Source: an uncultured Anaerolineales bacterium (GTDB lineage Bacteria > Chloroflexota > Anaerolineae > B4-G1 > SLSP01). From it: DNA of 51,437 nt. The notes beneath the pieces were generated by a model. The model worked only from the letters and a program-made list of their open reading frames with translations, ran no database searches and was not told the DNA's origin. Where the stretch lies: assembly GCA_964516885.1 (NCBI GenBank), contig CAZEXX010000001.1, positions 1-51,437 on the forward strand, written 5' to 3'. A program made the translations under genes and the position numbers. Positions 26,445 through 50,987 of this stretch are shown one piece after another (position 1 is the first letter of the stretch; each line of letters starts with the position of its first letter).

Positions 26445-26454
26445 CGTGTCCTCC

Positions 26455-27402
26455 TCAGACCTCTATGCTCACTATCTTGTCGATCACGATGTATCCCACC
26501 ACAATCATCACAACGGACACGCCCAACATCATCCAACCGCACGGATCAGTAAAGAGTGGGGCCATAAACTCAGGATTGATCAAGGAGATCACGCCGGTCA
26601 GGACAACCGGCAGGAACGTGATCAGCAAGCCTGTAGCACGACCCTGTGACGTCAGGATCTTGATCTCTCCCTTGATCCGGACGCGCTCGCGAATGGTGAA
26701 GCTGATCGCATCCAAGACCTCAGCCAAGTTACCACCGACTTCGCGCTGTACACTCATGGCTGTGATAAGCAAATCCAGATCCGGGCTGGGCATACGCCGA
26801 AGCAAGTTGGCCATAGCCGCATCAAATGAGACGCCCAGTTGGAGCTCAAGAACGACGCGACCATACTCCTCCGAAATCGGAGGCGGCATTTCGTTGGAAA
26901 TCACCTCTAGGGCCTGCATTGTGGAATAACCAGCGCGTAAGGAGTTGACCATCAGATTGAGCGAATCACTCAGCAGGTCGTTGAAGTCCTTAAGACGTTT
27001 GCTTTCCCGCGAGCCGAGATAAATCCGAGGAATGAAGAAACCCGCGATGACACCAACGGGGATGAAAACGTAGCGCTTGATAGCAAACGCAACCAGACCA
27101 AGGACTAGCGACGCAAGCATCGTCAGAACCAGAAACTCACCGACCGTCCATTTGAGGTTTGCCCGAGCCAGTTGTGTTGACAGGTTAGCCGCAAAACCGC
27201 GTCCCGCAACGGCTCGATCAACGACAGTACTGACAAAGCCGGGTCCACCTTGCTGCTCCGATGGCGTATCGGAAACGGCAACCGCCTGGTTTCCTAGCCG
27301 TTCTTCGACCAGAGCCTGACCAGTGGGTGCTCTGGACAGGCCAAACACCAGGAGGATAACGGCTACCAGCAGTATCGCGCCGACTAAGATAATGAAACCC
27401 AT
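26455..27402 (-). CDS. tadB: Tad/Flp pilus assembly inner-membrane platform protein (T2SS-F family)
   Basis: Paralogue of tadC. Start placed at ATG 27402 after GGGAGGAGG; the track ORF starts at GTG 27432. Confidence 0.8.
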   Translation of the reverse strand: MGFIILVGAILLVAVILLVFGLSRAPTGQALVEERLGNQAVAVSDTPSEQQGGPGFVSTVVDRAVAGRGFAANLSTQLARANLKWTVGEFLVLTMLASLVLGLVAFAIKRYVFIPVGVIAGFFIPRIYLGSRESKRLKDFNDLLSDSLNLMVNSLRAGYSTMQALEVISNEMPPPISEEYGRVVLELQLGVSFDAAMANLLRRMPSPDLDLLITAMSVQREVGGNLAEVLDAISFTIRERVRIKGEIKILTSQGRATGLLITFLPVVLTGVISLINPEFMAPLFTDPCGWMMLGVSVVMIVVGYIVIDKIVSIEV

Positions 27403-27468
27403 ACTGATCAACCTCCTCCCAGCCAAGCCCACTCCGGCCGCCGGACTGGCTGATAATGCGGACTCGGG

Positions 27469-28869: not shown

Positions 28870-28908
28870 GCCTCACCTCATTGAATCCTGCTAATCCGGC
28901 GCCAGAGA

Positions 28909-30198: not shown

Positions 30199-30221
30199 AC
30201 CTGGCTCTATTCTCCTTGCCC

Positions 30222-31349
30222 TTACTCCTGCGGTACCTCAGTCGGTTCAGGGAGCACCTCTAGAGGAGGATGAACCTGTACGGGGGCCACAGCGTCGGCG
30301 GGCATCGAGTCGGGTAGCTGATACTTGTCCAGAATGTAACGGAACCAGATCGGTTGAGTCTGCATCAGCGTGCCCTTCACGCCGGCCGGTCTCAGCACCA
30401 GATCCAGATCTGCTCCCATTTCGTGGAGGTACTTGAGCACCAAAGCATCCTCACGCGTCACCAACAACGTCACGAGTTCAATCTCCCGGACCTCATCGGC
30501 TATGGGCACAGGCGTTGGCGCAGCCGCAGCCCCGCCCGCCAAGGGTGCCAAGCCACCCTCGCCCCCAACACCAGATTCCAGGCCTGACGGATCGCCGGCC
30601 TCAGCGTCCTGATCCCATAACCCAACATGCCAGACCACCGCGTCCTGAACTGTCATCTGAACGAGCAACGCAGGATTCACGGCGGGTTGGGAATCCACCG
30701 GGTAGATGGCTGCCCATTGACCATTAGGTAGAAGTTCAAAGTCACCGTACTGACTAGACTGAGCAGCCTCGCCCTCCGCTCCACTGAGAAGGTAAGTGAA
30801 CTGCTTCACTCCACCGTCCAGGAAGTCCGTGTACACAGGCTCGATATGCAAAGCGGCAAGCACATCAACACGATCTCCTGGCTGCACAGCCCACCCGATA
30901 GCCCCCTGAGTGTCAAAGGGGATGGCATAGGCAACTCTGTCCTCTGGCTCAAACAGAGCTGCTGCAGAGCCATTGACCGCAAGCATGCCCCCTGGGCGCC
31001 CGACCATATCGGGCATAACCGGCATACCACGGGGAATTTCCATCCGGGCGAACTTGCCGTCGACCTCTTCCAGGGAGGCATAGTACTCGTAAGGCAAATT
31101 GGCGTTCGGCCACTCCTGCAGCGAGATCGCGTTATCAGAAACACTGATCGGCATGCCGCGAGGAATGTTCTGTATGGCCACGACAATCTCAGTCGTAGCC
31201 ACCTGCTGAAGTTCCGGAGTCGCCTCCAGATCAGAGTCCGGCCCACTTCCGGGGGCCATCATATTGAGGTAGAAGTAGACCGCGCCGGCCGCGACAGCCA
31301 GGACGATCAATACCAACGCAATAATGACCAGACTTCTGTTACCGCGCAT
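30222..31349 (-). CDS. cpaB: CpaB/RcpC-like Flp pilus assembly protein
   Basis: N-terminal TM, a SAF-like segment IVVAIQNIPRGMPIS, and an Ala/Gly/Pro-rich linker. GTAAGGAGG RBS. First gene of the block. Confidence 0.75.
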   Translation of the reverse strand: MRGNRSLVIIALVLIVLAVAAGAVYFYLNMMAPGSGPDSDLEATPELQQVATTEIVVAIQNIPRGMPISVSDNAISLQEWPNANLPYEYYASLEEVDGKFARMEIPRGMPVMPDMVGRPGGMLAVNGSAAALFEPEDRVAYAIPFDTQGAIGWAVQPGDRVDVLAALHIEPVYTDFLDGGVKQFTYLLSGAEGEAAQSSQYGDFELLPNGQWAAIYPVDSQPAVNPALLVQMTVQDAVVWHVGLWDQDAEAGDPSGLESGVGGEGGLAPLAGGAAAAPTPVPIADEVREIELVTLLVTREDALVLKYLHEMGADLDLVLRPAGVKGTLMQTQPIWFRYILDKYQLPDSMPADAVAPVQVHPPLEVLPEPTEVPQE

Positions 31350-34544: not shown

Positions 34545-35795
34545 ATGGCCAGCAAGCGCAGTAAGTCGTCCACCAGATCAAGTGGCAGCAAATCATCCCG
34601 GTCGAAGTCGTCCTCGTCCTCGACATCCCGATCCAACCGGACGCTCTCGTCAAGCGTATCCGGGTCAAAATCTAGTTCAGGAAGCAGCCGGGATATCAGC
34701 AGGAGCAGCTCGACAACACCTCGCCACACAGGGTCGACCGCCACGGATGCGCAGGCTCAGCGACTCTCTGCCGTGCAGATGAGCTGGCAACGCGTAGCCG
34801 GCACGCTAGCCCTTGCATCCTTGTTCGATGTCCTCGACGACGTCACAGGCGATTTGGACAGCTTGTCGCAGAAACTGGCTGACGTGCGGGCACGGGGTTA
34901 CCGATTCGGGCGGGATTGGGAAACGCAGGTAGGATCGCTAAACGATCGATGGCCACAGCAACGAAGTCAGGCAACCCGCTTGCTGCAGAACGAACAACGA
35001 ACGCTTCAGCGCGGCGCGAGCGACATCGACATGCTTCTGCAGAGGGCAGCTAGAAATGCGGGTCTGATCTCTACAGCCGAAAGCCGTATCCGAGCACTGG
35101 AAAGCAATGCCAGAAGCGCTGAGACCCGCGTTCGGCAGACCTTCGACGCAACCACGCAGCAAGCAGACGCCTTGCAGCAAGAGATCAGCGCAGCCCGATT
35201 CGTCATGGATGCACTCGACGCATCGAGCTTCGATCTATTCCCGGATGAGCACGCCATCGCGGCATGCCGGTCCATCTGGGTCAGCGATCATCAAGAGCCG
35301 GAGGGTTTCTTGTTCCTGACGGATGCTCGCCTGATCTTCGAGCAGCGGCAGGAAATCGCCACGAAGAAGGTCCTGTTTATCACGACCAAAAAGGAATTGA
35401 TCCAGGAGAAGTTATGGGAATCCCCGATCGGCGCGGTGGAAGAACTCGAAGCCGAGGACCAGAAATCTTTCCTGAAGCGCAAGGAAATGCTCACGATCCG
35501 CTTCAGTGAACGCACCCGCGAGATTCCCGGCGACATTACACTGCAACTCCAGGGTGCGGACAACGATACCTGGCGAAGCCTGATTCGCCGGGCGAAGAGC
35601 GGTCAGATCGACGGCGATCGATTCGGCGCGCCGGCACCTGATGAACAACTGGCGGCACAACTCGAACAAGAAACTGCCGAACCCGAGGAGGAACTGCCGA
35701 CCGTCTGCCCCAGCTGCAACGCACCACTACCGCCCATCTTCAAGGGAATGCCGCAAGTCACTTGCGAGTACTGTGGCGCTACCATCAACATCTAG
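34545..35795 (+). CDS. hypothetical protein: Ser/Arg/Lys-rich N-terminus, coiled coil, PH/GRAM-like domain, C-terminal zinc ribbon
   Basis: Strong RBS ACGGAGGT. 416 aa. By my count 31 of the first 60 residues are Ser. FLFLTDARLIFEQ...MLTIRF...ITLQL...DTWRSLIRRA looks PH-like. The zinc ribbon is CPSC...CEYC. Confidence 0.75.
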   Translation: MASKRSKSSTRSSGSKSSRSKSSSSSTSRSNRTLSSSVSGSKSSSGSSRDISRSSSTTPRHTGSTATDAQAQRLSAVQMSWQRVAGTLALASLFDVLDDVTGDLDSLSQKLADVRARGYRFGRDWETQVGSLNDRWPQQRSQATRLLQNEQRTLQRGASDIDMLLQRAARNAGLISTAESRIRALESNARSAETRVRQTFDATTQQADALQQEISAARFVMDALDASSFDLFPDEHAIAACRSIWVSDHQEPEGFLFLTDARLIFEQRQEIATKKVLFITTKKELIQEKLWESPIGAVEELEAEDQKSFLKRKEMLTIRFSERTREIPGDITLQLQGADNDTWRSLIRRAKSGQIDGDRFGAPAPDEQLAAQLEQETAEPEEELPTVCPSCNAPLPPIFKGMPQVTCEYCGATINI

Positions 35796-37345: not shown

Positions 37346-38008
37346 ATGACTAAGCACCTGATCCTCGTAGCTGGCAACATAGGCGTAGGAAAGACATCGC
37401 TCGCTGAACGTCTTGGCAGTCGATTGGGGTGGCACGTTGCTTACGAGTCAGTAGATGATAACCCCTACCTTCCCGATTTCTACGCCGATATGCGTGCTTG
37501 GAGCTTTCACCTTCAGGTCTTCTTCCTGGGACATCGAGCCAGACAGCATGAGGCGCTCTATGCTATGCCGGCGTCAGCCATTGTTGACCGAAGTATCTAC
37601 GAGGACGCACACATCTTTGCCAGAGCCTTGCACGAGCTGGGCAACATGTCAGATCGAGACTACCGGGCCTACCAAGCACTCTATGAACTGGTAACCGCCA
37701 AGCTTCCCCGGCCCCATCTGCTGGTGTACATAGAGGCCAGTGTGCCGACTCTCTGCGACCGCATCACCAAGCGGGGCCGAGACATCGAGTCGGCCATCAG
37801 TGAGGACTACCTCACACTACTGGGGCGCTACTACGACGAATGGATGAGCCACTTCGATCTCTGTCCCGTCTTGACCATCCCCGGCGATGACCTGGACTTT
37901 GTTCGCTATCCGGAGCACCTAGAGATCATCGCGGATCGCATCGAGGCCAAGCTGGCTGGGAAGGAAGCGGTTCGATTCCCCAAGCCGGAGGCTATCGTTG
38001 GCAGCTGA
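37346..38008 (+). CDS. deoxynucleoside kinase
   Basis: P-loop GNIGVGKTS and the DRSIYED motif. 220 aa. GAAGGAAA RBS. Confidence 0.85.
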   Translation: MTKHLILVAGNIGVGKTSLAERLGSRLGWHVAYESVDDNPYLPDFYADMRAWSFHLQVFFLGHRARQHEALYAMPASAIVDRSIYEDAHIFARALHELGNMSDRDYRAYQALYELVTAKLPRPHLLVYIEASVPTLCDRITKRGRDIESAISEDYLTLLGRYYDEWMSHFDLCPVLTIPGDDLDFVRYPEHLEIIADRIEAKLAGKEAVRFPKPEAIVGS

Positions 38009-39362
38009 GTACGGCGGACCACTGAGCGAGCGCGAGCTTGAAATCACAGGACTCGTCGCCCAAGGCCTCACCAACCGAGAAGTAGCTGTGCGGCTCTACC
38101 TCAGTCATAACACCGTTAAGGTGCACCTTCGCAACATCTTCACCAAGACAGGTGTGGCCTCACGTACTGAACTCTCAATGCTGGCCGTGCAGCAAGGCTG
38201 GATCAATCTGCCGGGTGGCTCAGAAGAAGCGCCACCCGCGACGGACGAAGCGGAACCGGGAACCCGATCGCCCGCCGCTGCCACGGCAGCTGAGCGTGCT
38301 TGGTGGCCCCGGTGGCCGTGGCAGCGCTGGGCTACCTTGGCCTGTGGGCTGGGGCTGGTGTTGATCATCTTCTTGCTGCCGCAACGGTACTCTGCACCGG
38401 CAGCTTCTTCCGGACCGGGCGACATATTCGGGACCAATGATCCGGCGCCGAACCTTCTGGCGCCCGCCGCTGGGGATAGCTGGCAAGAGCTGGCACCTCT
38501 CCCCGTGCGACGTGCGGCGATGGGCACGCTGGCATACGCCGGCAAGATCTATGCCATCGGGGGCATGGCAAATGATGGCCCCAGCGGGCGGGTAGACATC
38601 TACGACATCGCGTCAGACACGTGGGGGCAGGGCCAATCCCGGCCGGTGGCGCTGGCTAACGCCGGAGCCGTGGCTCTCGGAGATCGGATCTGGGTTCCGG
38701 GCGGGTGTGATGACAGCTTGGTACCCAGTAACACCACGGACAGCTACACGCCTGAACAAGACACCTGGTCAAAAGCCGCCCCTATGCCGACGCCTCTTTG
38801 TGCCTACGCTAGCGAGGCGTACGAGGATCAGATCTACCTCTTTGGCGGGTGGGACGGTCAGACCTACCGGGCGCTCACGTTCGTCTATTCGCCGACAGAT
38901 AACGCGTGGCGCGAGTTGGCCCCTCCCCAGCAGGCCCGAGGATTCGGCGCCGCTGCGGCGCTATCTGATCGCATCTTCTATGTCGGCGGATTCGATGGAG
39001 ATCGCGAGTGGTCCACCTGCGAAGTCTACTTCCCGGCCACCGACAGCTGGGACAGCTGCCCATCTATGCTGCAGCCACGCGGAGGCCTGAGTCTCGTGGC
39101 AATCGGTGGGCGCCTGTACGCAATCGGCGGGGGTTGGCACACACCCTTGGGCTTCAACGAGCGGTACACACCGGCAACCGACCAATGGAACGTGATGGAA
39201 ACGCCGATCGTGGGTGAGTGGCGCAGCCTCGGCGCTGTGCCCTGGGAGACAGCCATCTACACTGTCGGAGGGTGGAGTGGTACAGACTTTCTGAACCGGA
39301 CGTACGCCGTGGAGATTATGCCGTGGCGCGTCTTCATCCCCGGGACGTTCCGCACACCGTAG
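37998..39362 (+). CDS. LuxR-type HTH regulator with one TM helix and a C-terminal Kelch-repeat propeller
   Basis: TTG start 6 nt after GGAGG; overlaps the dNK end by 11 nt. LSERELEITGLVAQGLTNREVAVRLYLSHNTVKVHLRNIF is the LuxR HTH. The TM is WATLACGLGLVLIIFLL. Six Kelch-like blades follow (KIYAIGG, RIWVPGG, QIYLFGGWDG, RIFYVGGFDG, RLYAIGGGW, AIYTVGGWSG). Confidence 0.8.
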   Translation: MAAEYGGPLSERELEITGLVAQGLTNREVAVRLYLSHNTVKVHLRNIFTKTGVASRTELSMLAVQQGWINLPGGSEEAPPATDEAEPGTRSPAAATAAERAWWPRWPWQRWATLACGLGLVLIIFLLPQRYSAPAASSGPGDIFGTNDPAPNLLAPAAGDSWQELAPLPVRRAAMGTLAYAGKIYAIGGMANDGPSGRVDIYDIASDTWGQGQSRPVALANAGAVALGDRIWVPGGCDDSLVPSNTTDSYTPEQDTWSKAAPMPTPLCAYASEAYEDQIYLFGGWDGQTYRALTFVYSPTDNAWRELAPPQQARGFGAAAALSDRIFYVGGFDGDREWSTCEVYFPATDSWDSCPSMLQPRGGLSLVAIGGRLYAIGGGWHTPLGFNERYTPATDQWNVMETPIVGEWRSLGAVPWETAIYTVGGWSGTDFLNRTYAVEIMPWRVFIPGTFRTP

Positions 39363-40493: not shown

Positions 40494-41738
40494 CTAGACC
40501 AGGTCTGACCCCATGGGGACAACCAGATCATAGGGCATATCGGTCAGATTGTGAACTGTGCTGTCCTCAGCTATCCACAGAACGTCCTCGACACGGCACC
40601 CCATGCCCTCATCGGGATAGTAGAGCCCGGGCTCGATCGCAAATAGGTGCCCCGGCAGGAGACGTGTGCCGTTACTCGGATCATCGTGGAATCGAGGAAC
40701 TTCATGGACATCCAAACCGACACCGTGGGCGATCCCGTGCACATAGCCCCGCTGTGTTGCAGGGTCTTCAGCCACCGTAGGGTGTCCACGGTCACCGAGG
40801 AAATCGCAGGTCATGCGCTGGTAGTAGCTCGCCATCTCGCCGGCACGCACATCAGCCTCAAGCGCAATCAGACAATCAACAACATCCCGGTGCAAGCGAG
40901 CCACCGGCTCAGGAGCGTAGCCCAGACAGAACGTCCGCGTGAGATCGTAAAAATAGCCGCCGCCAACTTCCCGCGGAAAAATGTCGAAGACAATCGACTC
41001 ACCCAGGCGGATTAGTGCATCTAGCTGTCCCCGGCTGTGGGGAATGCCGGCGTCCCGCCCAGTAGAGAAGATGAACCCTTCTGGATCTTCGAGCCCCTCA
41101 TAGGCAACCAACCGAGCAATTCGGGCGTGAACATCGCCGACCGTCAAGCGATCACCATCGGCCTTGCGCAGGATTTCGCCGTCCCCCACTTCGTGAGACT
41201 GAAGAAACGCCACAGTCTGCTTCACCACCGCGACCGTGTGCCGTCCCACATCGCGGATGCGCGCGACCTCATCAGCATCTTTTGTCGCGCGAGCTACGCG
41301 GATCAAGTCCGCCTCGATCTCACCAACGATCTCGATATCAGGCGTAGCAGCATCCAGCGCCGTCAAGAAGGCGTAAGCATATCCCTGGTCCAGGTAGCCA
41401 TAGCATCCCAGACGCCCGGAAACCCCGAGATCCTCGAAGATCTTCCGATAGTAGGCAACCGACGCAGCAAGTGGATCTCCTTCATGTTGCTGGAGCAATT
41501 CACCATACCGGTAACGCGTCGTCAGGACAACCGTGTGACCTGATTTAGCGGCAGAGGCTCGGTCCATAGGCCCGGCAACTACCGTGGGCGCTTCTCCCCG
41601 CTTCTTGATAACCACAGCTTGAGTGAGGTGCACACCATTCAGCATATAGAACAAGGGTGGGTTGCCGAGAACCTTTCCCCTGACCAGGATCACATCCAGG
41701 TTCCGGTCAGCCATCAGTTGATCAATGTCACGTCTCAT
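40494..41738 (-). CDS. M24-family Xaa-Pro aminopeptidase
   Basis: Start at MRRDIDQLMADRNLD (ATG 41738, GAGGTG RBS). Metal ligand motifs HGIAHGVGLDVHE, EPGLY and RVEDVL. Confidence 0.85.
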   Translation of the reverse strand: MRRDIDQLMADRNLDVILVRGKVLGNPPLFYMLNGVHLTQAVVIKKRGEAPTVVAGPMDRASAAKSGHTVVLTTRYRYGELLQQHEGDPLAASVAYYRKIFEDLGVSGRLGCYGYLDQGYAYAFLTALDAATPDIEIVGEIEADLIRVARATKDADEVARIRDVGRHTVAVVKQTVAFLQSHEVGDGEILRKADGDRLTVGDVHARIARLVAYEGLEDPEGFIFSTGRDAGIPHSRGQLDALIRLGESIVFDIFPREVGGGYFYDLTRTFCLGYAPEPVARLHRDVVDCLIALEADVRAGEMASYYQRMTCDFLGDRGHPTVAEDPATQRGYVHGIAHGVGLDVHEVPRFHDDPSNGTRLLPGHLFAIEPGLYYPDEGMGCRVEDVLWIAEDSTVHNLTDMPYDLVVPMGSDLV

Positions 41739-41999
41739 CCAACCGCACCTCACAGATAGGGTATAATGGTTGATCTGGGGCCATTGTGCCACAAGGGGAC
41801 AGAAATGCCAAACGGCAGGGCAGTCATTGTATCAACGCGCGACGCTCCACACATCCGGCAAAGCCCAGTGGATTCGGGCCTGACAGAAGCTTCACGGCAT
41901 ATTTCCCTTTAGGGGTGAACGAGTGTCCAGCAGTCTGGCGACAAGCCTGTCTTGGGCAGTCGTCCCAACTCTGAAACACGCCCGAGATGCCAAGTTAGA

Positions 42000-42028
42000 T
42001 TGCGGTCGTTGCCTATTCTAGGTATACT
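42000..42028 (+). promoter_or_regulatory. possible promoter of der
   Basis: TTGCGG (42000-42005), a 17-nt spacer, then TATACT (42023-42028). Confidence 0.35.
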
Positions 42029-42082
42029 TAAGTTGCTAATCTTGCCCGAACGCTCTAAGGAGCGCCGAGCTCTGGAGTATTC

Positions 42083-43474
42083 ATGGTAAAACCACTTGTA
42101 GCTATCGTTGGACGCCCCAATGTGGGCAAATCAACGCTGTTTAATCGCATCGTCGGCGAGCGCCGGGCGGTTGTGAGCGATATCCCGGGCACCACTCGCG
42201 ACCGAATTGTGGCTGAAACCGAATGGAATGGCCGCTCTTTCCTGATTGTTGACACAGGCGGCATCGAGATCCGCCCACCGACGGTGGATGCGGGGCGCCG
42301 TGCACCTGAGGTGAAACCGCTGCTGGAAGATTCCGCAGAGTTTATCCCCTTGATCCGAGCGCAGGCCGAGGTCGCGATTCAGCAAGCTGATCTGATCATA
42401 TTCCTGACCGACGCCGGCACGGGGCTCACCGGCGCGGATCGTGAGGTAGCTGACCTGCTGCGAAAATCCAAGAGACCCGTGATGATCGCCGCTAACAAAG
42501 CGGAGAACGAGGCCCGCGAGTTGACCGCTTTTGAGTTCTACGAACTGGGTATGGGAGAGGTGCGCACCCTCTCTGCCATCCACGGGATGGGGGTCGGTGA
42601 CCTCCTTGACGACATCGTGGCTAGACTCCCGGGTGTTGAGGACCCTGAGGGACCCAAGGATGAAGGCGTCCGCATTGCCTTGATTGGTCGACCCAACGTG
42701 GGTAAGTCTTCACTGCTGAACCGTCTTCTGGGCGAAGAACGCGCCATCGTTAGCCCGGTAGCGGGTACCACGCGTGACGCGGTGGACACAGAGATGATGT
42801 GGGAAGGGCAGAAGATTATCCTGGTGGATACAGCGGGCATCCGGCGTCGCGGCAAGATCGATGTGGGCGTGGAGAAATATAGTGTGCTGCGGACAGCCCG
42901 AGCCCTGAAACGGGCTGACCTGGCTCTGCTGCTGATCGATGCAACGATAGGTATAACCGCACAGGATGCCCACATAGCCGGTATGACCGTCGCCGAAGGT
43001 GTCAGCGTCGTCGTCCTCGTCAACAAGTGGGATGCCGTCGAGCCGGAACTGCGCCTACTCCGCCAAGACATCGAAGACCATGTCCGTGAACAACTGCAGT
43101 TCCTCAACTTTATTCCGGTGCTCTTCATGTCAGCTCTCACCGGGATGAACGTGAATCGTATTCTTCCAACCTCGCTTGAGATTGTCGAAGCCAGATATCA
43201 ACGCATTCCCGCTGTCCAGCTTAATGATGTGGTGCAGCAAGCACTTCTAGACCACGCACCACCCAGCAGTGGCGGACGCCGGCTGGTAATCTACTTCAGC
43301 GCCCAGACTAGGGTCGCACCGCCGCACTTCACCTTCTACGTCAACAACCCGGATATCGTGCACTTCTCATACGAACGGTACCTGAAGAACTGCATCCGCA
43401 ACATCTTCCCCTTCCCTGGCACTCCCATCAATGTGACATTCAAAGGACGTCGGACGAGCAGAGGTAACCAGTAG
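42083..43474 (+). CDS. der: ribosome-associated GTPase Der/EngA
   Basis: Two tandem GTPase domains (GRPNVGKSTLFNR, GRPNVGKSSLLNR; DTGG and DTAG; NKAE and NKWD) plus a KH-like C-terminus. Confidence 0.95.
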   Translation: MVKPLVAIVGRPNVGKSTLFNRIVGERRAVVSDIPGTTRDRIVAETEWNGRSFLIVDTGGIEIRPPTVDAGRRAPEVKPLLEDSAEFIPLIRAQAEVAIQQADLIIFLTDAGTGLTGADREVADLLRKSKRPVMIAANKAENEARELTAFEFYELGMGEVRTLSAIHGMGVGDLLDDIVARLPGVEDPEGPKDEGVRIALIGRPNVGKSSLLNRLLGEERAIVSPVAGTTRDAVDTEMMWEGQKIILVDTAGIRRRGKIDVGVEKYSVLRTARALKRADLALLLIDATIGITAQDAHIAGMTVAEGVSVVVLVNKWDAVEPELRLLRQDIEDHVREQLQFLNFIPVLFMSALTGMNVNRILPTSLEIVEARYQRIPAVQLNDVVQQALLDHAPPSSGGRRLVIYFSAQTRVAPPHFTFYVNNPDIVHFSYERYLKNCIRNIFPFPGTPINVTFKGRRTSRGNQ

Positions 43475-43573
43475 CATCAGCGTTGGACTCGTGCCGACAG
43501 CCATCGTGGGGATGGGTTGGCGAGGGATTGCCTCGCTGACCCTAATATGACCAACACTCGCAAGGAATGAACG

Positions 43574-46500
43574 GTGAGCCCTGAACTTCAGGTAAGGATC
43601 CTCAGACTAGGGAATCACTACGTTGCCGTCACCACGGGCCGCGACGGGGAAGAGATTCTACGGAACGAGTTCCAGCACGGGACGATGCACCTCACCTATC
43701 TGGGGCCGCTCTGGCTCATTGATCAGGATAGCCTGGTCGCGGAGGAAAAGCATCGTCTGAGTGGCATTCTGAAGGGTAAGTCCAGCCTGGCACATGTAGC
43801 CGATCAAGGCCGGAGACTCTTCCGAAATCTCTTCGGCGATGGGTCCGTCCTGAGGAGCTACATAGCCCAGCACCCGGACGAGACGAGCTACCAACTGACC
43901 CTTGTCTTCACCCCAGAGGCGGCTCAACTAGCACGCCAGCCCTGGGAATACCTCTTCGATGGAAAACACTTCCCGTGCCTGACCGGCGAGTTGCTACTCA
44001 GCCGCCGGCCATCCACTGCAGCCTCCCTGGACGCCGCGCCCACTGCCGGTTCGCCGCTGCGTATCCTGGCCGTTGTGGCTGCGCCAACCGATCAAGTGGC
44101 GATTGATGCACCGGCGGAGTTGGAGACCCTCCAGACATCCCTCGAACAGTGGCTTGCCCGCGGCATAGTGGAGCTGGATGTCCTGCCGGAACCCACGTCC
44201 AGCGCGCTCCTCGAGAGAACCGGCGACAAAGCTTACCACATCATCCATTACGTGGGACATGCCACGTACCACCTATCGCAGCATCAGGGGTTCCTGTGCT
44301 TTGAAGACAAACTCGGCCAGGCGGAACTTTTGAGCGGTACGCAGTTGGCCCGATTTCTCGCCGGGAAACCCCCCGGACTCCTCACGCTGGCCGCCTGCCA
44401 GAAATTCCAGGTCGGCATTCTTGACGCATTCCAGAGCGTTGCCGCTGAACTTATGGACTACAAGATCCCCGGCGTGCTGATTGTACCGGCCAGCCTTTCC
44501 GCAGCCACAGCTGCGGTCCTCTACAAGACGCTCTACGGCAGCATCGCTCAAGGTGAGACTGTCCAGGAGAGCTTGCACAGGACACGCGTGGCAATGCAAC
44601 AGGCCGACCGGGAGACAGAAAGCGGAAAGCAGCGCTTTGAGTGGGGAGTACCTGCACTGATTCAGAGAGCGGCAAATCTCACGCTCGTTCAGCCTCCGCC
44701 CCGAGGATCCACACAGAATGATACTTCCGAGACCCACACGGCGATCGACCCACTGACCACGATGCCTTTGGTAGGACGTACCCGTGAAATCCAGGCTATC
44801 CGGAAGGCACTTCGCGAAGAGGCCACCATCTTCTACATCCTGGGCGACGAGGGGGTCGGCAAACGGGTCTTCACGTCATACACCATAGAGCATCTTGCCG
44901 TGAGGCCTGGCGCAGTCCTGACCATCCGTTGTCGGCAAGAACTCGATCCCCTCACTGCCCTTGCCAAAATCGCTGACTTCTGGAGAACGAGCCTACGCGA
45001 GGCTGATCCACAGGCAGCGGACCTGCTGCTTGATGCGCATCAAGCCCCCTTCGAACGCGCACAGAAGGCCCAGAAACTCCTGGCACGGAAACGCTACCTG
45101 CTCGTATTTGAAAACTTCGATACTTGGTTTGATCCACATCCAGAGGGCCCAACCCGGCTGCAAAACGAAACGCTGCGCCAGGCGTTATTGGGAATGCTCA
45201 GCGAGCCCAGCAAGGCGCTCTTTTTCTTCACAGCCGAACATCGCTGGGAAGACCTGGCCGGCATTGCCGTTGAGCTCCGCAGAGAGATCCGGCTCCCGCT
45301 GCTCTCGCTGCAGCACGCCACACAGGTGATCAACCAGCTGCCGGCCCTGCGACAGATGGCCGGTTCGTCAGCGGAGAAGCGAGCCGTCTATGCACAGCTT
45401 GGGGGACATCCTCTAGCACTCCAGATTCTGGATCGATGGCTGATCCTGGGCAATAACCTGCAATCGCTCGAAGAACTAAGGCCGACCGAGTCTGGATCAG
45501 CAGCAACCTGGGTTGACAGCTTAGTTGCGGACATCTTGACTCAGATGGATCCTGGTGAGTATGGCGTTCTTCAGGCCTTGTCCATTCTGACGCAGCCGTT
45601 CACTCAACAGACCATCTCCAGTCTCACCATGGTCACCGCCCAGCATGCCGGCCCACTGATTGAGAACTGGCTCTATTTTGGCCTGGCTGAACCCGTAGCC
45701 CCGGACAACGCCCCGCAGCAGTTCAGAATAACGGACCCGGTTCGCCGAGTTGTCTTGGACGGGCTGAGTGACGATGAGCTCAAAGCGCTCCATCTGCAAG
45801 CCGCCAGCTCCTACGCGGCGCCATACTATGATGCGGCGCGACGCCAAGTACTCGCGCGCAACATAACCACTTGGGCGGAGGACCGAATTGGTTGGCTGGC
45901 GCGAGATGCCGGCGGCATTCTGGGCATGTGGCTGCGACAGGAGCAGACAACTGAGGGAAAGGCCCGGTTGGTGGCTTCAGCATACGCGTGGCAGTATCAC
46001 CTGATGCAGGCCGGGGACATCGCAGCAGCATCAGAGATCATCCAGACTATCGCACCGGTGCTTGATCGACAGGGCCAGCGCGACCTGTCCAGAGAGTTAC
46101 TGCAACGGATGCTCAGCGCGAGCGATAGCGGCGCGAGCACCGGCAATGAGGTCGAGTCATTTGTCAGACTAAAACTGGAAGAGGGTCCGCTCTCCACAGC
46201 CCTTGATGTCTACGAGGATGTCTACCAGTCCTTGGATCCCGACGAAGCGGGAATCCAGCGTGCCTACGTCCTGCTGCGCACCGGCAACGTGAAGCAGCGA
46301 CTCAGCGACCCCAAAGCCGCGATCGAAAGCTACAGAGAGGCGCTCCGCATTGCACGCGAGGAGAAAGACCGGGAGGCAGAAGCAGGATGTCTCTACAAAC
46401 TGGCCACCGCCTATCGGGAAATCCTCAATTTCCGGCAGGCCCTTGTATGCAGCCAGGCGGCCAAAGAGCACTACGAAGTCCTTGCCTACCCCAATAATCT

Positions 46501-46834
46501 GGCGATCGTCGAACGCGAACAGGGACTCATTCTGGAACGGATGGATCGCCCTGAGAGCGCCTTGGAGCGCTTTGCTGCCAGCCTCCAGATGTGCCGCCAA
46601 CTGGCCGATCGACGGTGCATCGCGGACAATCTCACAGATATCGGGCGTCTCTTTGAGAAAATGGGCAAGACTGAGATGGCGATTCAGGTGATCGAGGAAG
46701 CTCTACACCACTACGGGTATCTGAGAAATCCCAAGCACGGCAAGGTTCTCTCACTTCTTGAGGAACTCTATGCACACAAGCAGCGGATAGACGAAGCTGT
46801 AGCACGACTCCGGGCCTCTCGGCGCGGCGAGTAG
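43574..46834 (+). CDS. CHAT (caspase-like) protease domain + STAND/NB-ARC-like P-loop NTPase + TPR repeats
   Basis: GTG start after AAGGAA. CHAT region is about aa 1-370, with PWEYLFDG, His229 in IIHYVGHA and Cys275 in LTLAACQ. Walker A is GDEGVGKR (aa 424-431); the Walker B-like motif is YLLVFENFD. The C-terminal ~230 aa are TPR-like (AIESYREALRIAREEKD..., ALERFAASLQMCRQLAD...). Confidence 0.8.
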   Translation: MSPELQVRILRLGNHYVAVTTGRDGEEILRNEFQHGTMHLTYLGPLWLIDQDSLVAEEKHRLSGILKGKSSLAHVADQGRRLFRNLFGDGSVLRSYIAQHPDETSYQLTLVFTPEAAQLARQPWEYLFDGKHFPCLTGELLLSRRPSTAASLDAAPTAGSPLRILAVVAAPTDQVAIDAPAELETLQTSLEQWLARGIVELDVLPEPTSSALLERTGDKAYHIIHYVGHATYHLSQHQGFLCFEDKLGQAELLSGTQLARFLAGKPPGLLTLAACQKFQVGILDAFQSVAAELMDYKIPGVLIVPASLSAATAAVLYKTLYGSIAQGETVQESLHRTRVAMQQADRETESGKQRFEWGVPALIQRAANLTLVQPPPRGSTQNDTSETHTAIDPLTTMPLVGRTREIQAIRKALREEATIFYILGDEGVGKRVFTSYTIEHLAVRPGAVLTIRCRQELDPLTALAKIADFWRTSLREADPQAADLLLDAHQAPFERAQKAQKLLARKRYLLVFENFDTWFDPHPEGPTRLQNETLRQALLGMLSEPSKALFFFTAEHRWEDLAGIAVELRREIRLPLLSLQHATQVINQLPALRQMAGSSAEKRAVYAQLGGHPLALQILDRWLILGNNLQSLEELRPTESGSAATWVDSLVADILTQMDPGEYGVLQALSILTQPFTQQTISSLTMVTAQHAGPLIENWLYFGLAEPVAPDNAPQQFRITDPVRRVVLDGLSDDELKALHLQAASSYAAPYYDAARRQVLARNITTWAEDRIGWLARDAGGILGMWLRQEQTTEGKARLVASAYAWQYHLMQAGDIAAASEIIQTIAPVLDRQGQRDLSRELLQRMLSASDSGASTGNEVESFVRLKLEEGPLSTALDVYEDVYQSLDPDEAGIQRAYVLLRTGNVKQRLSDPKAAIESYREALRIAREEKDREAEAGCLYKLATAYREILNFRQALVCSQAAKEHYEVLAYPNNLAIVEREQGLILERMDRPESALERFAASLQMCRQLADRRCIADNLTDIGRLFEKMGKTEMAIQVIEEALHHYGYLRNPKHGKVLSLLEELYAHKQRIDEAVARLRASRRGE

Positions 46835-46870
46835 CGCCCCGACCGGTGCCCTGAGCTGGTCACGCCCACG

Positions 46871-49800
46871 CTATGGCTGGATCTCAATCAAACTGAGTCT
46901 TGCACGATCCTCACCCAATCGCGTACCCGCCCCGTAAAGTGCCTGCCGCGTGCCACGTTTAGCATCATACATCCCCACATAAAGCTCATAATCGCCGGCA
47001 GGCACATCCGCCGGCACCCTCAAGACGTGGCGGTCGACAATCACCTCGCCCTCAGACCATGTGGTTGTTGGTGCAACACCGCCATCCGGCCAGGCATCGG
47101 ACTGCGCCAGGATCCCCTTGTCGGGATCGACCAGGTGGACAAAGACCGTATAGTCAGCCTCTGCAGGCCCCTGAGCTCGCCAGTAGAGCGTGACATCTAG
47201 ATCATCTCCCGGCCGGGGCTCAAGGTTCGCCAGATCCGCGCCGACAAGCTCACCGAACCCCTCAACCCTGACCGCCAACGGAATGTCAGGCACACGCGGT
47301 AACACGAAATCCCGCGAGCGCTGCTGCACAGAGACCTCGCCCACAATGACGGCACCAGCCGACAGTCCATTGCCAGCCGCGGGCCACACGGCCAACGTGC
47401 ATGTCCCCTCAGGTAGGTCAGGGGAGAGCAGCGGCGCATACTTCACTTCATACCGGTGCCCAACTGGCCACGCCTCAGGGGTGGACGGGGCCCACTGGAG
47501 AAGACCCAGCTGGGATCGCCGCACCCCAGTGCGGCTCTCTGGCGCTGCACCACAGACCAATTCCCACGCAAGTGCATCTGCAGACGGTCCCTCACGACGC
47601 TCCAGGCCTAGGGAGAACGGCATCGCCCGCCCGGCCATCAGCTGCATCTTTGGCGGTCCCACGCCGATGACGCGTAACCCGGGCCACTCAGCATCTCGAG
47701 CGATCAGCCGGTCAAGTTGCGGCGCAGGATATGGCGGGGCTTCAACGACCACATCCCCCAGCACCAACTGCGTGCCACCAAAGGAACCGTCGCTGCGCGT
47801 GAGCCCCAGCCAACCGTCCGAGCCAGACAGCGACATCACCAGAGTGTACGTGCCGGGCGGAAGATCCAGTGGTATGGCAACGTAGGCCTCGGCGTCAGTG
47901 ACTGCACCGGTCAGCCAGTCGGGTGCGGGCCAGCCCCAGCCATTGACGACGCGCTGCCCACCGTCGGCCCAGACAATCTCCCGTGCCCCGTCACCGGTCT
48001 TCAGGGCCAAATATATCTCCAATTCCCCAAGCGTCGTACGAGGCAGCCACCGCATATGCACAGTCAGAGGATCCAGGGCCCGCACCGGATCGGCCCACGC
48101 GATACTGACCAGATCGACCGCACCGGCGAAACGGGCCAGATAGGGCTCCGGCGCCCGCAGCGCCGTAGACAGCCGGCATCGCTCCGCCTCGAAGCCGCCC
48201 ACCGGCGCTGCGGGCTCGCACACCAGACGCCCAGCTTCCTCACCTGCAGCGAAGAGCATCTCAAGCTGAGCCTCGGTGATCGGATAGCACAGTGGAGCGT
48301 GCACCCACAAGAAGGATGTCGCCGGATCCATAGTCGCATTGAGCCAGGCCACAAGACCATCCGGCGTGGCTCCCTCCGCCGCCGCTAGGGACGAGAGACC
48401 CGGAAGCGGACCAGCGGACAGCAACGGCAGGGATGAAGGTTCAGCCGGAGTGGCGGTATAGATCGTCGCCACTTCACGACCGGCGAGCCGCAGTCGCGCT
48501 GCCACCGCATAGCCATCGGCGGCGCTGGATCTCTGGCCGATGATGGCATCGGTACATCCCACAGTCGAAACGGTCCGTGGCCAGGTCTCACCGGAGAAGA
48601 AGGGTGCCGTGCCGCTGACATTCTCAGTGAGAACGGTAGCCGTCTCCGGCGCAGGCAGCAGCCGGTTCAGCTTGCGGGCCGCGAACCCCGATGCCTCGCC
48701 CCACCCCAAGGGAATAACTGCCTGAGCACCCCAGGGGCCGCCGAGGAGCGGGGATGCGTAATGGAGAGGAACTATGGCAACAAGCGCCCAAGGCAGCAGA
48801 AGCAGTCCCAAGGCCACCCGCCGCCAACCACGTTTGGCCTGCGACCAGACGGATGCAGCCGCCGGGGTGAGTAACGGAATCACCGTGAGGATATAGCGGT
48901 CGAACTTCTTGACCGCTACGGTAAGCGCGACCAAGTAGAACAGCGTCACCAAGGCCCCCCAGCACAGAAGCCGGCGTGCATCGCCGACTGAGGCACCGCC
49001 TCTGCAGCGTGAAACGCCAGACAGCGCGCCGGCTAGACCAAGAAGTACAAGCGGCGTCATCCGGAACAGCAGGACCAGAGGATAAAAGGCTGGCCCAGGA
49101 TCTGTGCGCATCTCACCAAGGAAGAACACCGACCGCAGACCAATACCTTCGTGGTAGGTAACCGCACCGACCAGCGAGTTCAGGGCGGCACGCGGCGCCA
49201 CCCAGAAAGGGGGATAAAGCAGCAGCAAGAAGATCACGGTCAGGACAGCAACGAAGATGACCTGTACGGACCGTTGCTGCAGCGTCCCCTCACCCCACAG
49301 AAGAATTGCCAACGCTAACCCCGGCGCCACCAACAATCCCAGCGTCTTGGTCAGCCCAGAAAGGGCCAGACACAGTGCCGCGAGGCCTAGAAGCATCACC
49401 CGGCGTACGCGCCGGCGGCGGGTGTAGGGTGCAGGATCAGGTTCAGCCCGCGGGAGTACCAACAGAACAGCCAGCAGAGCAAAAGTAGCTTGGAGCGCAT
49501 CGGTGTGCAGAAGGCCTGAATGCCCCGCGAGAAAGGGGTCCAGTGCCAGGAAAAGCGCCATCCACCGGGAAGTGCGCGCTCCGAATCGCCGTCGCCCAAG
49601 CTGATAGGCCCAGACCAGGCCCGCGCTGGTGACCACAGCCACAAGCACACGTCCGGCAGGCAGGAAGTAGGCAAGGTGCTCGAAGGCCTCAGCATTCTCC
49701 GGGGCGAGCCAGGCCATGCTGGCGATCCAATCTTGATGCGCCGCAGACGCATCCGGCTGCAGCCACGCCATGGCCTTCACGCCCAGGGCACCCAGCGCCA

Positions 49801-50020
49801 TCGTCGTGATGCCGGGGTGTCCTGTCTGCGGCACGCCGGCCCAATCGCCGGCCTTAATTGCCTGCAGAAACTCAACACTCCGCATCACCCAGATCGGCTC
49901 ATCGGGCGTGACGTAGAACCCCAACGGTACAAGGCGCACGGAAAGCGCCACGATAAAAATCGCGGCGCTGAGTATGGCTATTCGGATCGGTGATTCGTCA
50001 AGCGACTGGCGCCCCACCAC
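46871..50020 (-). CDS. GT-C fold (GT39/ArnT-like) polytopic glycosyltransferase with a ~570-aa extracytoplasmic C-terminal region
   Basis: The GTG start is 1-2 nt after the GT2 stop. The N-terminal ~480 aa has many TM helices plus a VTPDEP loop motif typical of ArnT/PMT-like enzymes. The C-terminus holds three related modules ending LPPGTYTLV, LPEGTCTLA and VPAGDYELY. Confidence 0.8.
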   Translation of the reverse strand: MVGRQSLDESPIRIAILSAAIFIVALSVRLVPLGFYVTPDEPIWVMRSVEFLQAIKAGDWAGVPQTGHPGITTMALGALGVKAMAWLQPDASAAHQDWIASMAWLAPENAEAFEHLAYFLPAGRVLVAVVTSAGLVWAYQLGRRRFGARTSRWMALFLALDPFLAGHSGLLHTDALQATFALLAVLLVLPRAEPDPAPYTRRRRVRRVMLLGLAALCLALSGLTKTLGLLVAPGLALAILLWGEGTLQQRSVQVIFVAVLTVIFLLLLYPPFWVAPRAALNSLVGAVTYHEGIGLRSVFFLGEMRTDPGPAFYPLVLLFRMTPLVLLGLAGALSGVSRCRGGASVGDARRLLCWGALVTLFYLVALTVAVKKFDRYILTVIPLLTPAAASVWSQAKRGWRRVALGLLLLPWALVAIVPLHYASPLLGGPWGAQAVIPLGWGEASGFAARKLNRLLPAPETATVLTENVSGTAPFFSGETWPRTVSTVGCTDAIIGQRSSAADGYAVAARLRLAGREVATIYTATPAEPSSLPLLSAGPLPGLSSLAAAEGATPDGLVAWLNATMDPATSFLWVHAPLCYPITEAQLEMLFAAGEEAGRLVCEPAAPVGGFEAERCRLSTALRAPEPYLARFAGAVDLVSIAWADPVRALDPLTVHMRWLPRTTLGELEIYLALKTGDGAREIVWADGGQRVVNGWGWPAPDWLTGAVTDAEAYVAIPLDLPPGTYTLVMSLSGSDGWLGLTRSDGSFGGTQLVLGDVVVEAPPYPAPQLDRLIARDAEWPGLRVIGVGPPKMQLMAGRAMPFSLGLERREGPSADALAWELVCGAAPESRTGVRRSQLGLLQWAPSTPEAWPVGHRYEVKYAPLLSPDLPEGTCTLAVWPAAGNGLSAGAVIVGEVSVQQRSRDFVLPRVPDIPLAVRVEGFGELVGADLANLEPRPGDDLDVTLYWRAQGPAEADYTVFVHLVDPDKGILAQSDAWPDGGVAPTTTWSEGEVIVDRHVLRVPADVPAGDYELYVGMYDAKRGTRQALYGAGTRLGEDRARLSLIEIQP

Positions 50021-50021: not shown

Positions 50022-50987
50022 CTACTCCTCTGAGCGGATCACGTAGATCGGTTTGTTCTGGACCTCGAAGTAGGTACGCGCCTGGATCTCCCCCAGCAGC
50101 CCCATAACCAGGAACTGAACGCCCAGGATCATCAGCAAAATGGCCAACGACAACAGCGGACGACTGCCAATATCGACGCCAGCCACGACCTTGAGCAGTG
50201 TCAGGTATAGCGCCATGGCAAATCCCACCCCCCCACTGATCAACCCCGCCAACCCAAAGAGCTGCATCGGCCGAGCCAGATAACTCAGCAGGAAGATGAT
50301 CGTCACCAGATCCAAGATGACCCGAACCGTCTTCGAGATATTGTACTTCGACTTACCATAGACCCGCGGGCGATCATTGACCGCGACCTCAGCCACTCGC
50401 ACCCCGATGCCGGAAGCCAGGGCCGGGATAAACCGGTGCAATTCACCGTAGAGGTTCACGTGCTTGGCCACCTCGCGATGGTAGATTTTGAGCGAACACC
50501 CGTAGTCGTGCAGCACGACGCCGGTCGACCGGCCGATGATACGGTTGGCGATCATCGAGGGCAGACGGCGCGACAGAAAAGGCTCCTTGCGGTCCTTCCG
50601 CCACCCGCTGACGATATCGTACCCCTCGTCCATAACGTCCAGGAGCCGGGAGATATCAGCCGGATCATTCTGGCCATCGGCATCCATGGTGATCACATAC
50701 CGGCCCCGGGATAGGTCGAATCCCGCAGCGAAGCCGGCCGTCTGGCCGAAATTACGCCTGAAACTGACGATCCTCAGATTGGGTTCGTCGTCCTTGAGTT
50801 CGCGCAGGACCTCGAGACTATCGTCTGTGCTCCCGTCATCAACAGCGATGATCTCATACGATCGCCCTATTGCCTGCAGCGCCACGGATAGCTCGGGGAT
50901 GAATGAGCGCAGATTCCCGGCCTCATTATAGACAGGCAAAACTATGGAGATGTCTAGCTCGGGATCACCTGTATGTTTCTCTATCAT
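50022..50987 (-). CDS. GT2 polyprenyl-phosphate glycosyltransferase (DPM1/ArnC/GtrB-like) with two C-terminal TM helices
   Basis: ISIVLPVYNE, VDDGSTDDS, MDADGQNDP (DXD), then two C-terminal hydrophobic helices. GGAAAGGA RBS. Confidence 0.9.
   Translation of the reverse strand: MIEKHTGDPELDISIVLPVYNEAGNLRSFIPELSVALQAIGRSYEIIAVDDGSTDDSLEVLRELKDDEPNLRIVSFRRNFGQTAGFAAGFDLSRGRYVITMDADGQNDPADISRLLDVMDEGYDIVSGWRKDRKEPFLSRRLPSMIANRIIGRSTGVVLHDYGCSLKIYHREVAKHVNLYGELHRFIPALASGIGVRVAEVAVNDRPRVYGKSKYNISKTVRVILDLVTIIFLLSYLARPMQLFGLAGLISGGVGFAMALYLTLLKVVAGVDIGSRPLLSLAILLMILGVQFLVMGLLGEIQARTYFEVQNKPIYVIRSEE

Follow-up and report, generated by a model that had tools for sequence, protein, structure and literature searches.

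The DNA analyzed here, referred to as the window, was a 51,437-nucleotide (nt) stretch from an uncultured Anaerolineales bacterium (GenBank assembly GCA_964516885.1, contig CAZEXX010000001.1). One of its genes encodes a genuine tripartite NLR-like protein, composed of an N-terminal CHAT protease domain, a MalT/PH0952- and Apaf-1-like STAND nucleotide-oligomerization domain (NOD), and a C-terminal tetratricopeptide repeat (TPR) array. In the clade to which it belongs, this CHAT-STAND-TPR gene was found at one fixed position behind der; purifying selection acts on it, the sensor being under the tightest constraint, and the catalytic dyad of its protease was repeatedly lost. The explanation favored here, at about an even chance of being right, is that the gene encodes a domesticated NLR-like protease switch responding to a conserved, most probably endogenous cue, with a lineage-specific role in regulated proteolysis or cell fate that derives from an accessory, conflict-type ancestor.

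The gene (43574..46834, plus strand, stop codon included) was an uninterrupted open reading frame (ORF) of 1086 amino acids (aa) with a GTG start. An AAGGA Shine-Dalgarno motif lay 7 nt 5' of the start (43562-43566) and was kept in close relatives. The public collection contained an identical protein named 'CHAT domain-containing protein [Anaerolineae bacterium]', and the NCBI name was nothing more specific. The first-pass annotation of the window, made by a model from the letters and their translations, had read the ORF as a fusion of CHAT, STAND NTPase and TPR parts, and this reading was borne out by Pfam, AlphaFold2 and Foldseek. Pfam PF12770 (CHAT) matched aa 97-348 (E 1.8e-19, 70.7 bits, cut-off 24), AAA_16 matched aa 398-522 (36 bits, cut-off 32.6), and TPR_12/TPR_1 and other TPR families matched aa ~870-1050 in the C-terminal third. 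Among 20 full-length family members, CHAT, AAA_16 and TPR were matched in 19, 16 and 20, respectively; ATPase_2 and NACHT matches were seen in other family members, and WHD_MalT and TPR_MalT matches in relatives. No helix-turn-helix (HTH), DNA-binding or other output domain was found by Pfam in the 20 members. The first 96 residues were specific to the family: generic CHAT proteins aligned only from aa ~70-79, and family members aligned from aa 2-14.

An AlphaFold2 model built on a 20-sequence family alignment was confident, with a mean predicted local distance difference test score (pLDDT) of 84.6 and a predicted template modeling score (pTM) of 0.74. In a Foldseek comparison with the PDB the best match was PH0952 (6mfv), a STAND protein with a TPR sensor and a MalT homologue (E 2e-14 over 716 columns). 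Further matches included Apaf-1 (E 1e-7), the activated SAVED-CHAT filament 8tl0 (E 4e-6) and LGN/Pins-type TPRs. The succession of effector, switch ATPase and repeat sensor is that of an NLR-like STAND, as had been proposed. The N-terminal place of the CHAT domain had been taken as unusual; an N-terminal effector is in fact the standard NLR/Avs order, and STANDs with a caspase-like N-terminus have been described (PMC13581612).

Within the NOD, the residue-to-nucleotide assignments made earlier for Walker A and Walker B, like those of His229 and Cys275, were correct. Four Walker A residues (G424, G427, G429 and K430) were invariant in 20/20 members and in every orthologue covering the region. 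The acidic Walker B position was Glu or Asp in most members, the exceptions being P0003 (Gly), L011 (Lys), L012/L013 (insertion) and L025/L027 (deletion). Two STAND hallmarks were added to the earlier list: sensor-1 (aa 550-558), with the family consensus FFFTxxRRW, and the GxP motif GGHPLAL (aa 610-616), in which G610 and G611 were invariant and H612 and P613 nearly so in the family alignment. Altogether, the window protein carried every STAND and CHAT sequence and fold feature examined.

The protease dyad was assigned through SAVED-CHAT. When a profile of the family CHAT segment was compared with the PDB, 8tl0 was the sole match (E 2.6e-20), and the family His (GH) and Cys were set against HFIGHG and LNACCT at chain positions 355 and 402. 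The catalytic dyad of SAVED-CHAT, H375/C422, has been validated by mutation (10.1101/2023.06.23.546230). Because the aligned 8tl0 residues are 47 apart, the same spacing as H375/C422, His229/Cys275 can be equated with the dyad. Failure of the caspase fold, of the STAND ATPase or of the dyad alignment would have spoken against the first reading, and all three were upheld. The dyad was already considered intact in the first-pass annotation, and with both residues in place proteolysis is predicted for the window protein.

All genomes compared were metagenome-assembled genomes (MAGs) of an uncultured clade. A word-indexed search of 5.8 billion proteins gave 39 matches, 21 of them full-length and co-linear at 100% down to 29% identity, and every named full-length relative came from an 'Anaerolineae bacterium' MAG. 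In members 89, 87, 81, 48, 46, 45, 40, 37 and 36% identical to the window protein, the same four-gene core was seen, with der upstream on the same strand, the CHAT-STAND-TPR gene after it, and a convergent pair composed of a PMT_2-like gene and a GT2 glycosyltransferase gene downstream. The loci fetched with this core were L001-L004, L007-L009, L037, L038, L041 and L042. In L041 the core was kept though the outer flank differed.

For a sample unbiased by the CHAT gene itself, species-representative genomes were scanned with an independent, lineage-specific anchor, a LuxR-Kelch gene ~4 kb upstream. The CHAT gene stood directly after der in 17/17 species-level anchor loci that reached past der, and the PMT_2-like gene was convergent downstream wherever the contig extended that far. 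No empty site, i.e., der abutting the PMT_2-like gene without a CHAT gene, was seen among the anchor loci. L016 and L029 were anchor-positive and lacked the CHAT gene, but der was absent from them too; the block was broken, and these are not empty sites. In L016 the break fell between the M24 peptidase gene and der. Seven further der-linked loci (L043-L048 and L052) were recovered by a metagenome-contig scan anchored on the CHAT family. Fixed synteny persisted to ~35% protein identity.

A patchy distribution had been expected of an accessory conflict gene, and the opposite was found, with the same position in 17/17 species and in every der-linked metagenome locus. By the comparative data the der-linked clade is monophyletic and vertically inherited, and its gene is not a mobile defense-island gene. 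Universal, housekeeping-type synteny had been named as a finding that would speak against a conflict system. It held within the clade only: the gene is restricted to the clade, and its evolution is faster than that of true housekeeping genes.

In seven loci only 0-20 nt separated der from the CHAT gene; the gap was 45-100 nt in most others (99 nt in the window) and 185-315 nt in two. Co-transcription of the two genes is plausible from this spacing and the absence of consensus signals. A consensus scan of 41700-47100 gave no promoter- or terminator-like sites on the plus strand around the CHAT gene or in the gap; the scan gave no more sites than shuffled sequence did, and it was uninformative for Chloroflexota, for which consensus signals are poorly calibrated.

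Two irregularities were seen among the syntenic loci. At the break in L016 there was a 160-aa ORF (13788-14270, minus strand) with a Cys-rich C-terminus which, judged by eye, resembled a degraded TnpB/IS605-family zinc finger. In MFD MAGs, the CHAT gene was shortened by broken frames in L015 (15250-15950) and L024 (14661-19048), and der was broken in L024 and, in a third MFD MAG, in L001 (8596-9991; 51-aa and 410-aa pieces). The short frames of L015 and L024 were considered as real pseudogenes and dropped: der was also broken and the N-terminus of L015 was frame-shifted, which makes assembly frameshifts likelier.

Between the window and three other genomes, the CHAT-STAND-TPR protein was 45-48% identical, compared with 71-73% for Der, 79-84% for TsaD, 79-81% for GT2 and 48-54% for the PMT_2-like protein. 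The CHAT gene was among the fastest-evolving of the block, yet not diversifying. Its whole-gene ratio of nonsynonymous to synonymous substitution rates (dN/dS, Nei-Gojobori, against three close relatives) was 0.21-0.28, and every domain was below 1. The ratio was 0.05-0.17 for housekeeping neighbors and 0.25 for the PMT_2-like gene, which evolved at about the rate of the CHAT gene while its GT2 partner stayed ~80% identical.

The TPR array had the lowest dN/dS of all domains (0.07-0.18 in the three sister-species pairs that covered it with unsaturated dS). TPR identity to orthologues was 46-59% versus 38-49% for CHAT and NTPase, and was the highest in most comparisons. The linker at aa 349-397 was the fastest segment, with 16-35% identity to orthologues and a dN/dS of 0.36-0.60. 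Diversifying selection in the TPR was tried as a candidate and ruled out by a dN/dS of 0.07-0.31. A conserved TPR array is the opposite of a fast-adapting immune sensor, though a sensor for a conserved phage fold would still be compatible with it.

Losses of the protease dyad were scored in a gap-free, well-flanked part of the alignment. Cys275 was replaced by Pro in L017, L018 and L048 and by Ser in L020; His229 was replaced by Leu in L047. Both residues were replaced in L022 (= P0013, found on five contigs; His229 to Tyr, Cys275 to Ser), L024 (His229 to Tyr, Cys275 to Arg) and L041 (= P0050; His229 to Asn, Cys275 to Gln). Each of these orthologues was der-linked and retained Walker A, and sensor-1 and GGHP were retained where the region was covered. 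On a quick neighbor-joining tree the der-linked clade was monophyletic and the losses fell on separate branches within it, so that the dyad must have been lost independently at least 4-5 times. His and Cys were kept in all seven sequences of that tree that belonged to the sister group or outgroup.

The CHAT domain stayed constrained after the loss: its dN/dS was 0.37 for L017/L018, which lack the Cys, and 0.35 for L025/L027, a pair of similar divergence with an intact dyad. Both catalytic residues were retained in about three quarters of the der-linked loci, the window included, and most species probably still make use of catalysis. To judge from the alignment, however, the gene can evidently be kept without it; the idea of a required protease effector did not survive the repeated loss of the dyad in otherwise intact orthologues. 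Dyad loss was counted in ~8/27 der-linked loci vs ~2/24 other loci, an enrichment in the der-linked clade that is suggestive only, as the loci are not independent and no significance is claimed.

The wider family was surveyed by an exhaustive HMMER pass of aa 1-800 against 1.84 billion representatives, which gave 87 proteins at E <= 1e-30. About 50 of the 87 were ~1,100-aa proteins co-linear over CHAT and NOD, down to 22-25% identity, and nearly all of these ~1,100-aa members carried the canonical motifs (GHG, C, hhhFDNFE, FTSR and GGHP). The CHAT-STAND-TPR architecture is therefore that of an established though uncharacterized family and is not itself new.

Members outside the der-linked clade (L005, L040) were found in unrelated contexts, and the sister clade lacked the der and PMT_2 neighbors. 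Sister-clade context differed already at ~80% mutual identity: L053 shared the neighbors of L005, and L054 and L063 did not. The L063 copy (6001-9240; 30% identical to the window protein) was directly downstream of a 137-aa ORF and an ORF with a PIN domain (VapC-like), and a tyrosine recombinase lay 2 kb away (flank region 3006-5949), an accessory or mobile-type context. On this comparison the behavior of the sister clade is that of an accessory gene, and that of the der-linked clade is of a fixed one. The contig of P0067 was too short to show gene context. In L040 (9320-10765, plus strand) the outgroup CHAT-STAND-TPR gene (28-30% identity) was followed on the same strand by several Pfam-less genes and a Peptidase_C25 (gingipain-like, clan CD) gene, and L040 could be a multi-protease locus.

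Searches for defense signals were negative. With the whole protein and its three modules as queries and E values up to 10 allowed, PADLOC models gave generic TPR matches only and none to CHAT or to the NTPase; the database was PADLOC-DB version 2.0.0 (2023), which covers the Avs families described by then. Viral contigs scanned with the family alignment gave zero matches, and no CRISPR-associated genes were found in the window or the syntenic loci. The conflict or defense role first suggested for the gene gained nothing from these searches or from its setting: GC over the CHAT gene was ordinary (0.56-0.60, like its neighbors, with no compositional anomaly), the window held no defense or mobile-element genes, and selection on the gene was purifying.

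Mechanistically, the resting protein would be an ADP-bound closed monomer in which contacts between the TPR array and the nucleotide-binding domain (NBD) autoinhibit the switch, by analogy with PH0952/MalT, Apaf-1 and SAVED-CHAT. A resting ADP-bound, TPR-autoinhibited state has been described for the TPR-sensor STAND PH0952 (PMC6468293). Capture of a ligand by the TPR array would release autoinhibition, ADP would be exchanged for ATP and the NOD would oligomerize; the clustered CHAT domains, activated by induced proximity, would then cleave a substrate encoded elsewhere. Ligand-induced, nucleotide-dependent oligomerization is assumed here by homology only (PMC6468293). In dyad-lost orthologues the output would have to be non-proteolytic (scaffolding or sequestration).

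A non-immune role for such a switch has precedent in the non-defense STAND clades that are interspersed among defense clades (PMC13581612) and in HetF, a CHAT protease by which a filamentous cyanobacterium divides and differentiates its cells (PMC9457339, PMC8406250). The conflict-type ancestry is suggested by the sister clade, which still resembles such an ancestor: its dyad is intact, its contexts shift, and an integrase and a PIN toxin are found next to one of its copies. Several points weigh against domestication. The CHAT protein evolves ~2x faster than the housekeeping neighbors (45-48% vs 70-84% identity), and the whole 12-gene block is syntenic in the clade, so that adjacency to der and PMT_2 may lack functional meaning. 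Vertical inheritance is compatible with immunity, and core-genome immune receptors exist; the TPR sensors of Avs proteins also recognize conserved folds and need not diversify. A caspase-like effector serves as a criterion for 'defense-associated' STAND clades (PMC13581612). Co-transcription with der would depend on spacing and on lacking consensus signals that are poorly calibrated for Chloroflexota, and the endogenous role is drawn from comparative data. A fuller history may be imagined, in which a conflict-type gene was inserted once behind der in the ancestor of the clade and became a core gene, co-transcribed with that of the essential ribosome-assembly GTPase, that now monitors an endogenous state such as ribosome biogenesis via Der, or envelope glycosylation, and triggers caspase-like proteolysis and cell-fate decisions, several lineages being on the way to a pseudoprotease scaffold. 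As a whole this history is improbable; if true, it would mirror the way in which eukaryotes co-opted NLR/apoptosome machinery to control endogenous cell death.

The most obvious competitor of domestication is that the protein is an antiviral, abortive-infection NLR of the Avs type that happens to be stably inherited here, its TPR array binding a conserved phage protein, its NOD oligomerizing and its CHAT domain cleaving host proteins, with arrest or death of the cell as the outcome. We consider this unlikely, though deserving of serious attention. The effector-NOD-TPR layout is identical to that of characterized Avs proteins (PMC10907252, PMC13581612), CHAT proteases such as SAVED-CHAT are known immune executioners, and the dyad is intact in the window and most orthologues; loss of the dyad at least 4-5 times, with the rest of the protein constrained, would nevertheless abolish a protease-based abortive-infection output. 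The accessory-like sister clade, with its copy beside an integrase and a PIN toxin, would suit immunity, but in the der-linked clade the position was fixed in 17/17 independently sampled species and to ~35% identity, no defense or mobile-element neighbors and no viral copies were seen, and the CHAT and NOD modules had no PADLOC model even at E<=10. Likewise, the gene evolves faster than its housekeeping neighbors, as an immune gene might, but its sensor is the most conserved domain, with a dN/dS below 0.31.

Recurrent dyad loss beside an invariant Walker A, sensor-1 and GGHP would also be consistent with the NOD-TPR switch being the selected function, the CHAT domain serving mainly as a non-catalytic binding or oligomerization module in a nucleotide-gated scaffold or sequestering factor for which proteolysis is dispensable even where the dyad is present. 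The closest fold is that of the MalT homologue PH0952, and the protein would then be comparable to a MalT-type signaling hub without its DNA-binding domain. The CHAT domain of the Cys-less L017/L018 was as constrained as that of the dyad-intact L025/L027, and in the conflict systems of multicellular bacteria caspase domains are commonly inactive and serve as binders or dominant negatives (~70% in VMAP; PMC7159879). Retention of both residues over deep divergence in ~three quarters of the der-linked loci points the other way, to selection on catalysis in most species, and no DNA-binding or other output domain was detected; a scaffold of this kind is doubtful, slightly more so than the insertion history given above. 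Least probable of all, and in our judgment rather remote, is a coupling to the fixed neighbors, by which the protein guards or is regulated by Der, or controls the convergent PMT_2/GT2 envelope-glycosylation pair. The four-gene core persists where the outer flank differs (L041) and moves or breaks as a unit (the break in L016 lies between M24 and der), gaps to der shrink to 0-10 nt, and the PMT_2-like gene evolves at the rate of the CHAT gene; for guarding a GTPase there is the example of SeAvs7, a STAND whose TPR sensor engages the host translational GTPase EF-Tu (PMC13581612). Little weight can be put on adjacency, however, when it is seen in a single clade where a larger block is conserved as well; the sister clade has neither neighbor, and the convergent orientation excludes co-transcription with PMT_2/GT2.

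Set beside characterized systems, the window protein is most readily modeled on the MalT-type STAND PH0952 of P. horikoshii (6mfv; PMC6468293). Both have the order NBD, helical domain, winged helix, arm and TPR, and a resting state with bound ADP and autoinhibition by the TPR is the natural model, at a sequence identity of ~14%. MalT-type proteins activate transcription through a LuxR-type DNA-binding output, whereas the window protein has an N-terminal CHAT domain instead and no LuxR/GerE-type DNA-binding domain was found in 20 members, which leaves it outside that type. With Apaf-1 it shares the NOD fold and the logic by which an oligomeric NOD serves as the platform where a caspase-fold protease becomes active. 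Apaf-1 differs in its WD40 beta-propeller sensor, C14 caspase and CARD adaptor; the window protein has TPR and CHAT and no CARD. Bacterial versions in which a caspase-like protease is fused directly to the STAND N-terminus are known, the described examples being cyanobacterial (PMC13581612). The layout is the same, though the window protein may not be orthologous to these fusions.

Avs/bNACHT proteins are likewise encoded by a single gene with an N-terminal effector, a STAND NTPase and a C-terminal TPR-like sensor (PMC10907252, PMC13581612). The window gene differs from them in the repeated loss of its CHAT effector dyad and in belonging to a clade that is neither patchy, mobile nor located in a defense island; no family of PADLOC 2.0.0 (2023) was matched and no accessory behavior was seen. 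SAVED-CHAT, from a type III-B CRISPR/CBASS hybrid (8tl0), is the closest solved CHAT protein by profile, with His and Cys aligned, and is activated by oligomerization; it is switched by binding of cyclic triadenylate (cA3) to its SAVED domain, in contrast to the NTPase switch and C-terminal TPR array of the window protein. Csx29, the TPR-CHAT protein of type III-E systems, is switched by the gRAMP-crRNA complex, has its TPR before CHAT and no NTPase, and is associated with gRAMP/Cas7-11 and Csx30/31. The order CHAT-NTPase-TPR and the lack of CRISPR genes in the window and syntenic loci separate the window protein from type III-E Craspase. Nor does it belong to a gasdermin system, as its neighbors are der and PMT_2/GT2 and no gasdermin occurs in the 51-kb window.

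HetF of Anabaena, a filamentous bacterium, is likewise a CHAT protease, chromosomally fixed and with a role outside immunity (PMC9457339, PMC8406250), and differs from the window protein in having no STAND NTPase or TPR module. The HetF family NCBIfam NF045509 matched weakly and through the CHAT domain only (E 1.9e-9, 36.4 bits). Orthology to HetF was ruled out, 36.4 bits being far from the equivalog cut-off of 1200. The cultured relatives of the window lineage are multicellular filaments.

Bacterial NLR-like STANDs are now usually read as anti-phage sensors, and very few non-defense, non-transcriptional cases have been examined. This family holds a natural contrast between an accessory-like sister clade and a clade whose gene has stayed in place behind der under purifying selection, with its sensor the best conserved part and its dyad repeatedly lost. 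Domestication, if true, would be a tractable case of an immune-type switch co-opted for an endogenous role. If that explanation is wrong, a core-genome, vertically inherited anti-phage NLR would also be unusual. The distinguishing interest of the gene is evolutionary, and no established concept is changed by it yet.

Table 1. Features of the CHAT-STAND-TPR gene and its immediate neighbors, with positions in the 51,437-nt window.
Feature	Position	Strand	Remarks
der (engA), ribosome-biogenesis GTPase	42083..43474	+	TIGR03594 E 1.9e-154; invariable upstream neighbor, probable co-transcript
der-CHAT intergenic leader	43475..43573	+	99 nt; 91% conserved among five close relatives
N-terminal family-specific region	43574..43861	+	aa 1-96; three beta-strands then helices (AlphaFold2), ahead of Pfam CHAT
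CHAT protease domain (caspase-fold, clan CD)	43862..44617	+	aa 97-348; Pfam, Foldseek, profile match to 8tl0
Predicted catalytic His229 codon (HYVGHA)	44258..44260	+	aligns with His of SAVED-CHAT dyad
Predicted catalytic Cys275 codon (LAACQ)	44396..44398	+	aligns with Cys of SAVED-CHAT dyad
Linker	44618..44764	+	aa 349-397; partly disordered, pLDDT <50 for aa 378-392
Nucleotide-binding domain of STAND NOD	44765..45253	+	aa 398-560; Pfam AAA_16, Foldseek PH0952 and Apaf-1
Walker A GDEGVGKR	44843..44866	+	aa 424-431; Lys430
Walker B LLVFENFD	45098..45121	+	aa 509-516; acidic residue Glu513
Sensor-1 FFFTAEHR (hhhTxxR)	45221..45244	+	aa 550-557; T553 invariant, motif conserved family-wide
Helical domain, winged helix, arm of NOD	45254..45973	+	aa 561-800; AlphaFold2, co-linear Foldseek alignment to PH0952
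GxP motif GGHPLAL, STAND helical/winged-helix module	45401..45421	+	aa 610-616
C-terminal TPR array	45974..46831	+	aa 801-1086; Pfam TPR_12, TPR_1; LGN/Pins-like TPR fold
PMT_2-like (GT-C type) membrane glycosyltransferase	46871..50020	-	1049 aa; weak PMT_2 and Agl23 matches; convergent
GT2 glycosyltransferase, operon partner of PMT_2-like gene	50022..50987	-	Pfam PF00535 E 3.5e-32

The setting of the gene in the window (Table 1) was as first described: it stood solo between der and the convergent glycosyltransferases, with no adjacent gasdermin, CRISPR or other substrate gene. GT2 was 78-96% identical between loci. The 51-kb window was otherwise ordinary core chromosome, with genes for histidine biosynthesis, Lon, a Tad-type pilus cluster, FtsY, a release factor, TilS, dNK, the LuxR-Kelch protein, TsaD and the M24 peptidase in addition to der. 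No integrase, transposase, toxin-antitoxin, restriction, CRISPR, gasdermin or other defense or mobile-element genes were found in the 51-kb window, and there was no gasdermin-like Pfam match among its ORFs.

Rfam gave zero matches over the whole window at gathering thresholds, and an RNA element as explanation of the der-CHAT leader was ruled out for want of a match. The leader contained a 6-bp hairpin at 43520-43536 on the plus strand (GCGAGG-GATTG-CCTCGC). It was dropped as a terminator or regulatory element: no T-run followed it, and relatives showed a mismatch instead of covariation.

The LuxR-Kelch protein used as anchor (37998-39362, plus strand; 454 aa) had an N-terminal LuxR/GerE HTH, a hydrophobic segment (WPWQRWATLACGLGLVLIIFLLPQ) and a C-terminal Kelch beta-propeller. 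Its gene start overlapped the end of dNK, and it was lineage-specific and 53-92% identical in ~20 species-level Anaerolineae MAGs. A paralogue was present near the sister-clade CHAT gene in L063.

Three ORFs of the window had no Pfam match (E<=1e-5): 34545-35795 (plus strand, 416 aa), 18166-19845 (minus strand, 559 aa) and 5807-6541 (plus strand, 244 aa). The 416-aa ORF was flanked by the release-factor gene and tilS; in several syntenic loci a gene of 408-414 aa, likewise Pfam-less, occupied the same place. The 559-aa ORF adjoined an SPFH/Band-7 gene. The Tad/Flp-type pilus cluster (25515-31349, minus strand) contained two TadB/C-like T2SSF proteins, a CpaF-like ATPase, a response-regulator-ParA/CpaE-like protein and a CpaB/RcpC-like SAF-domain protein.

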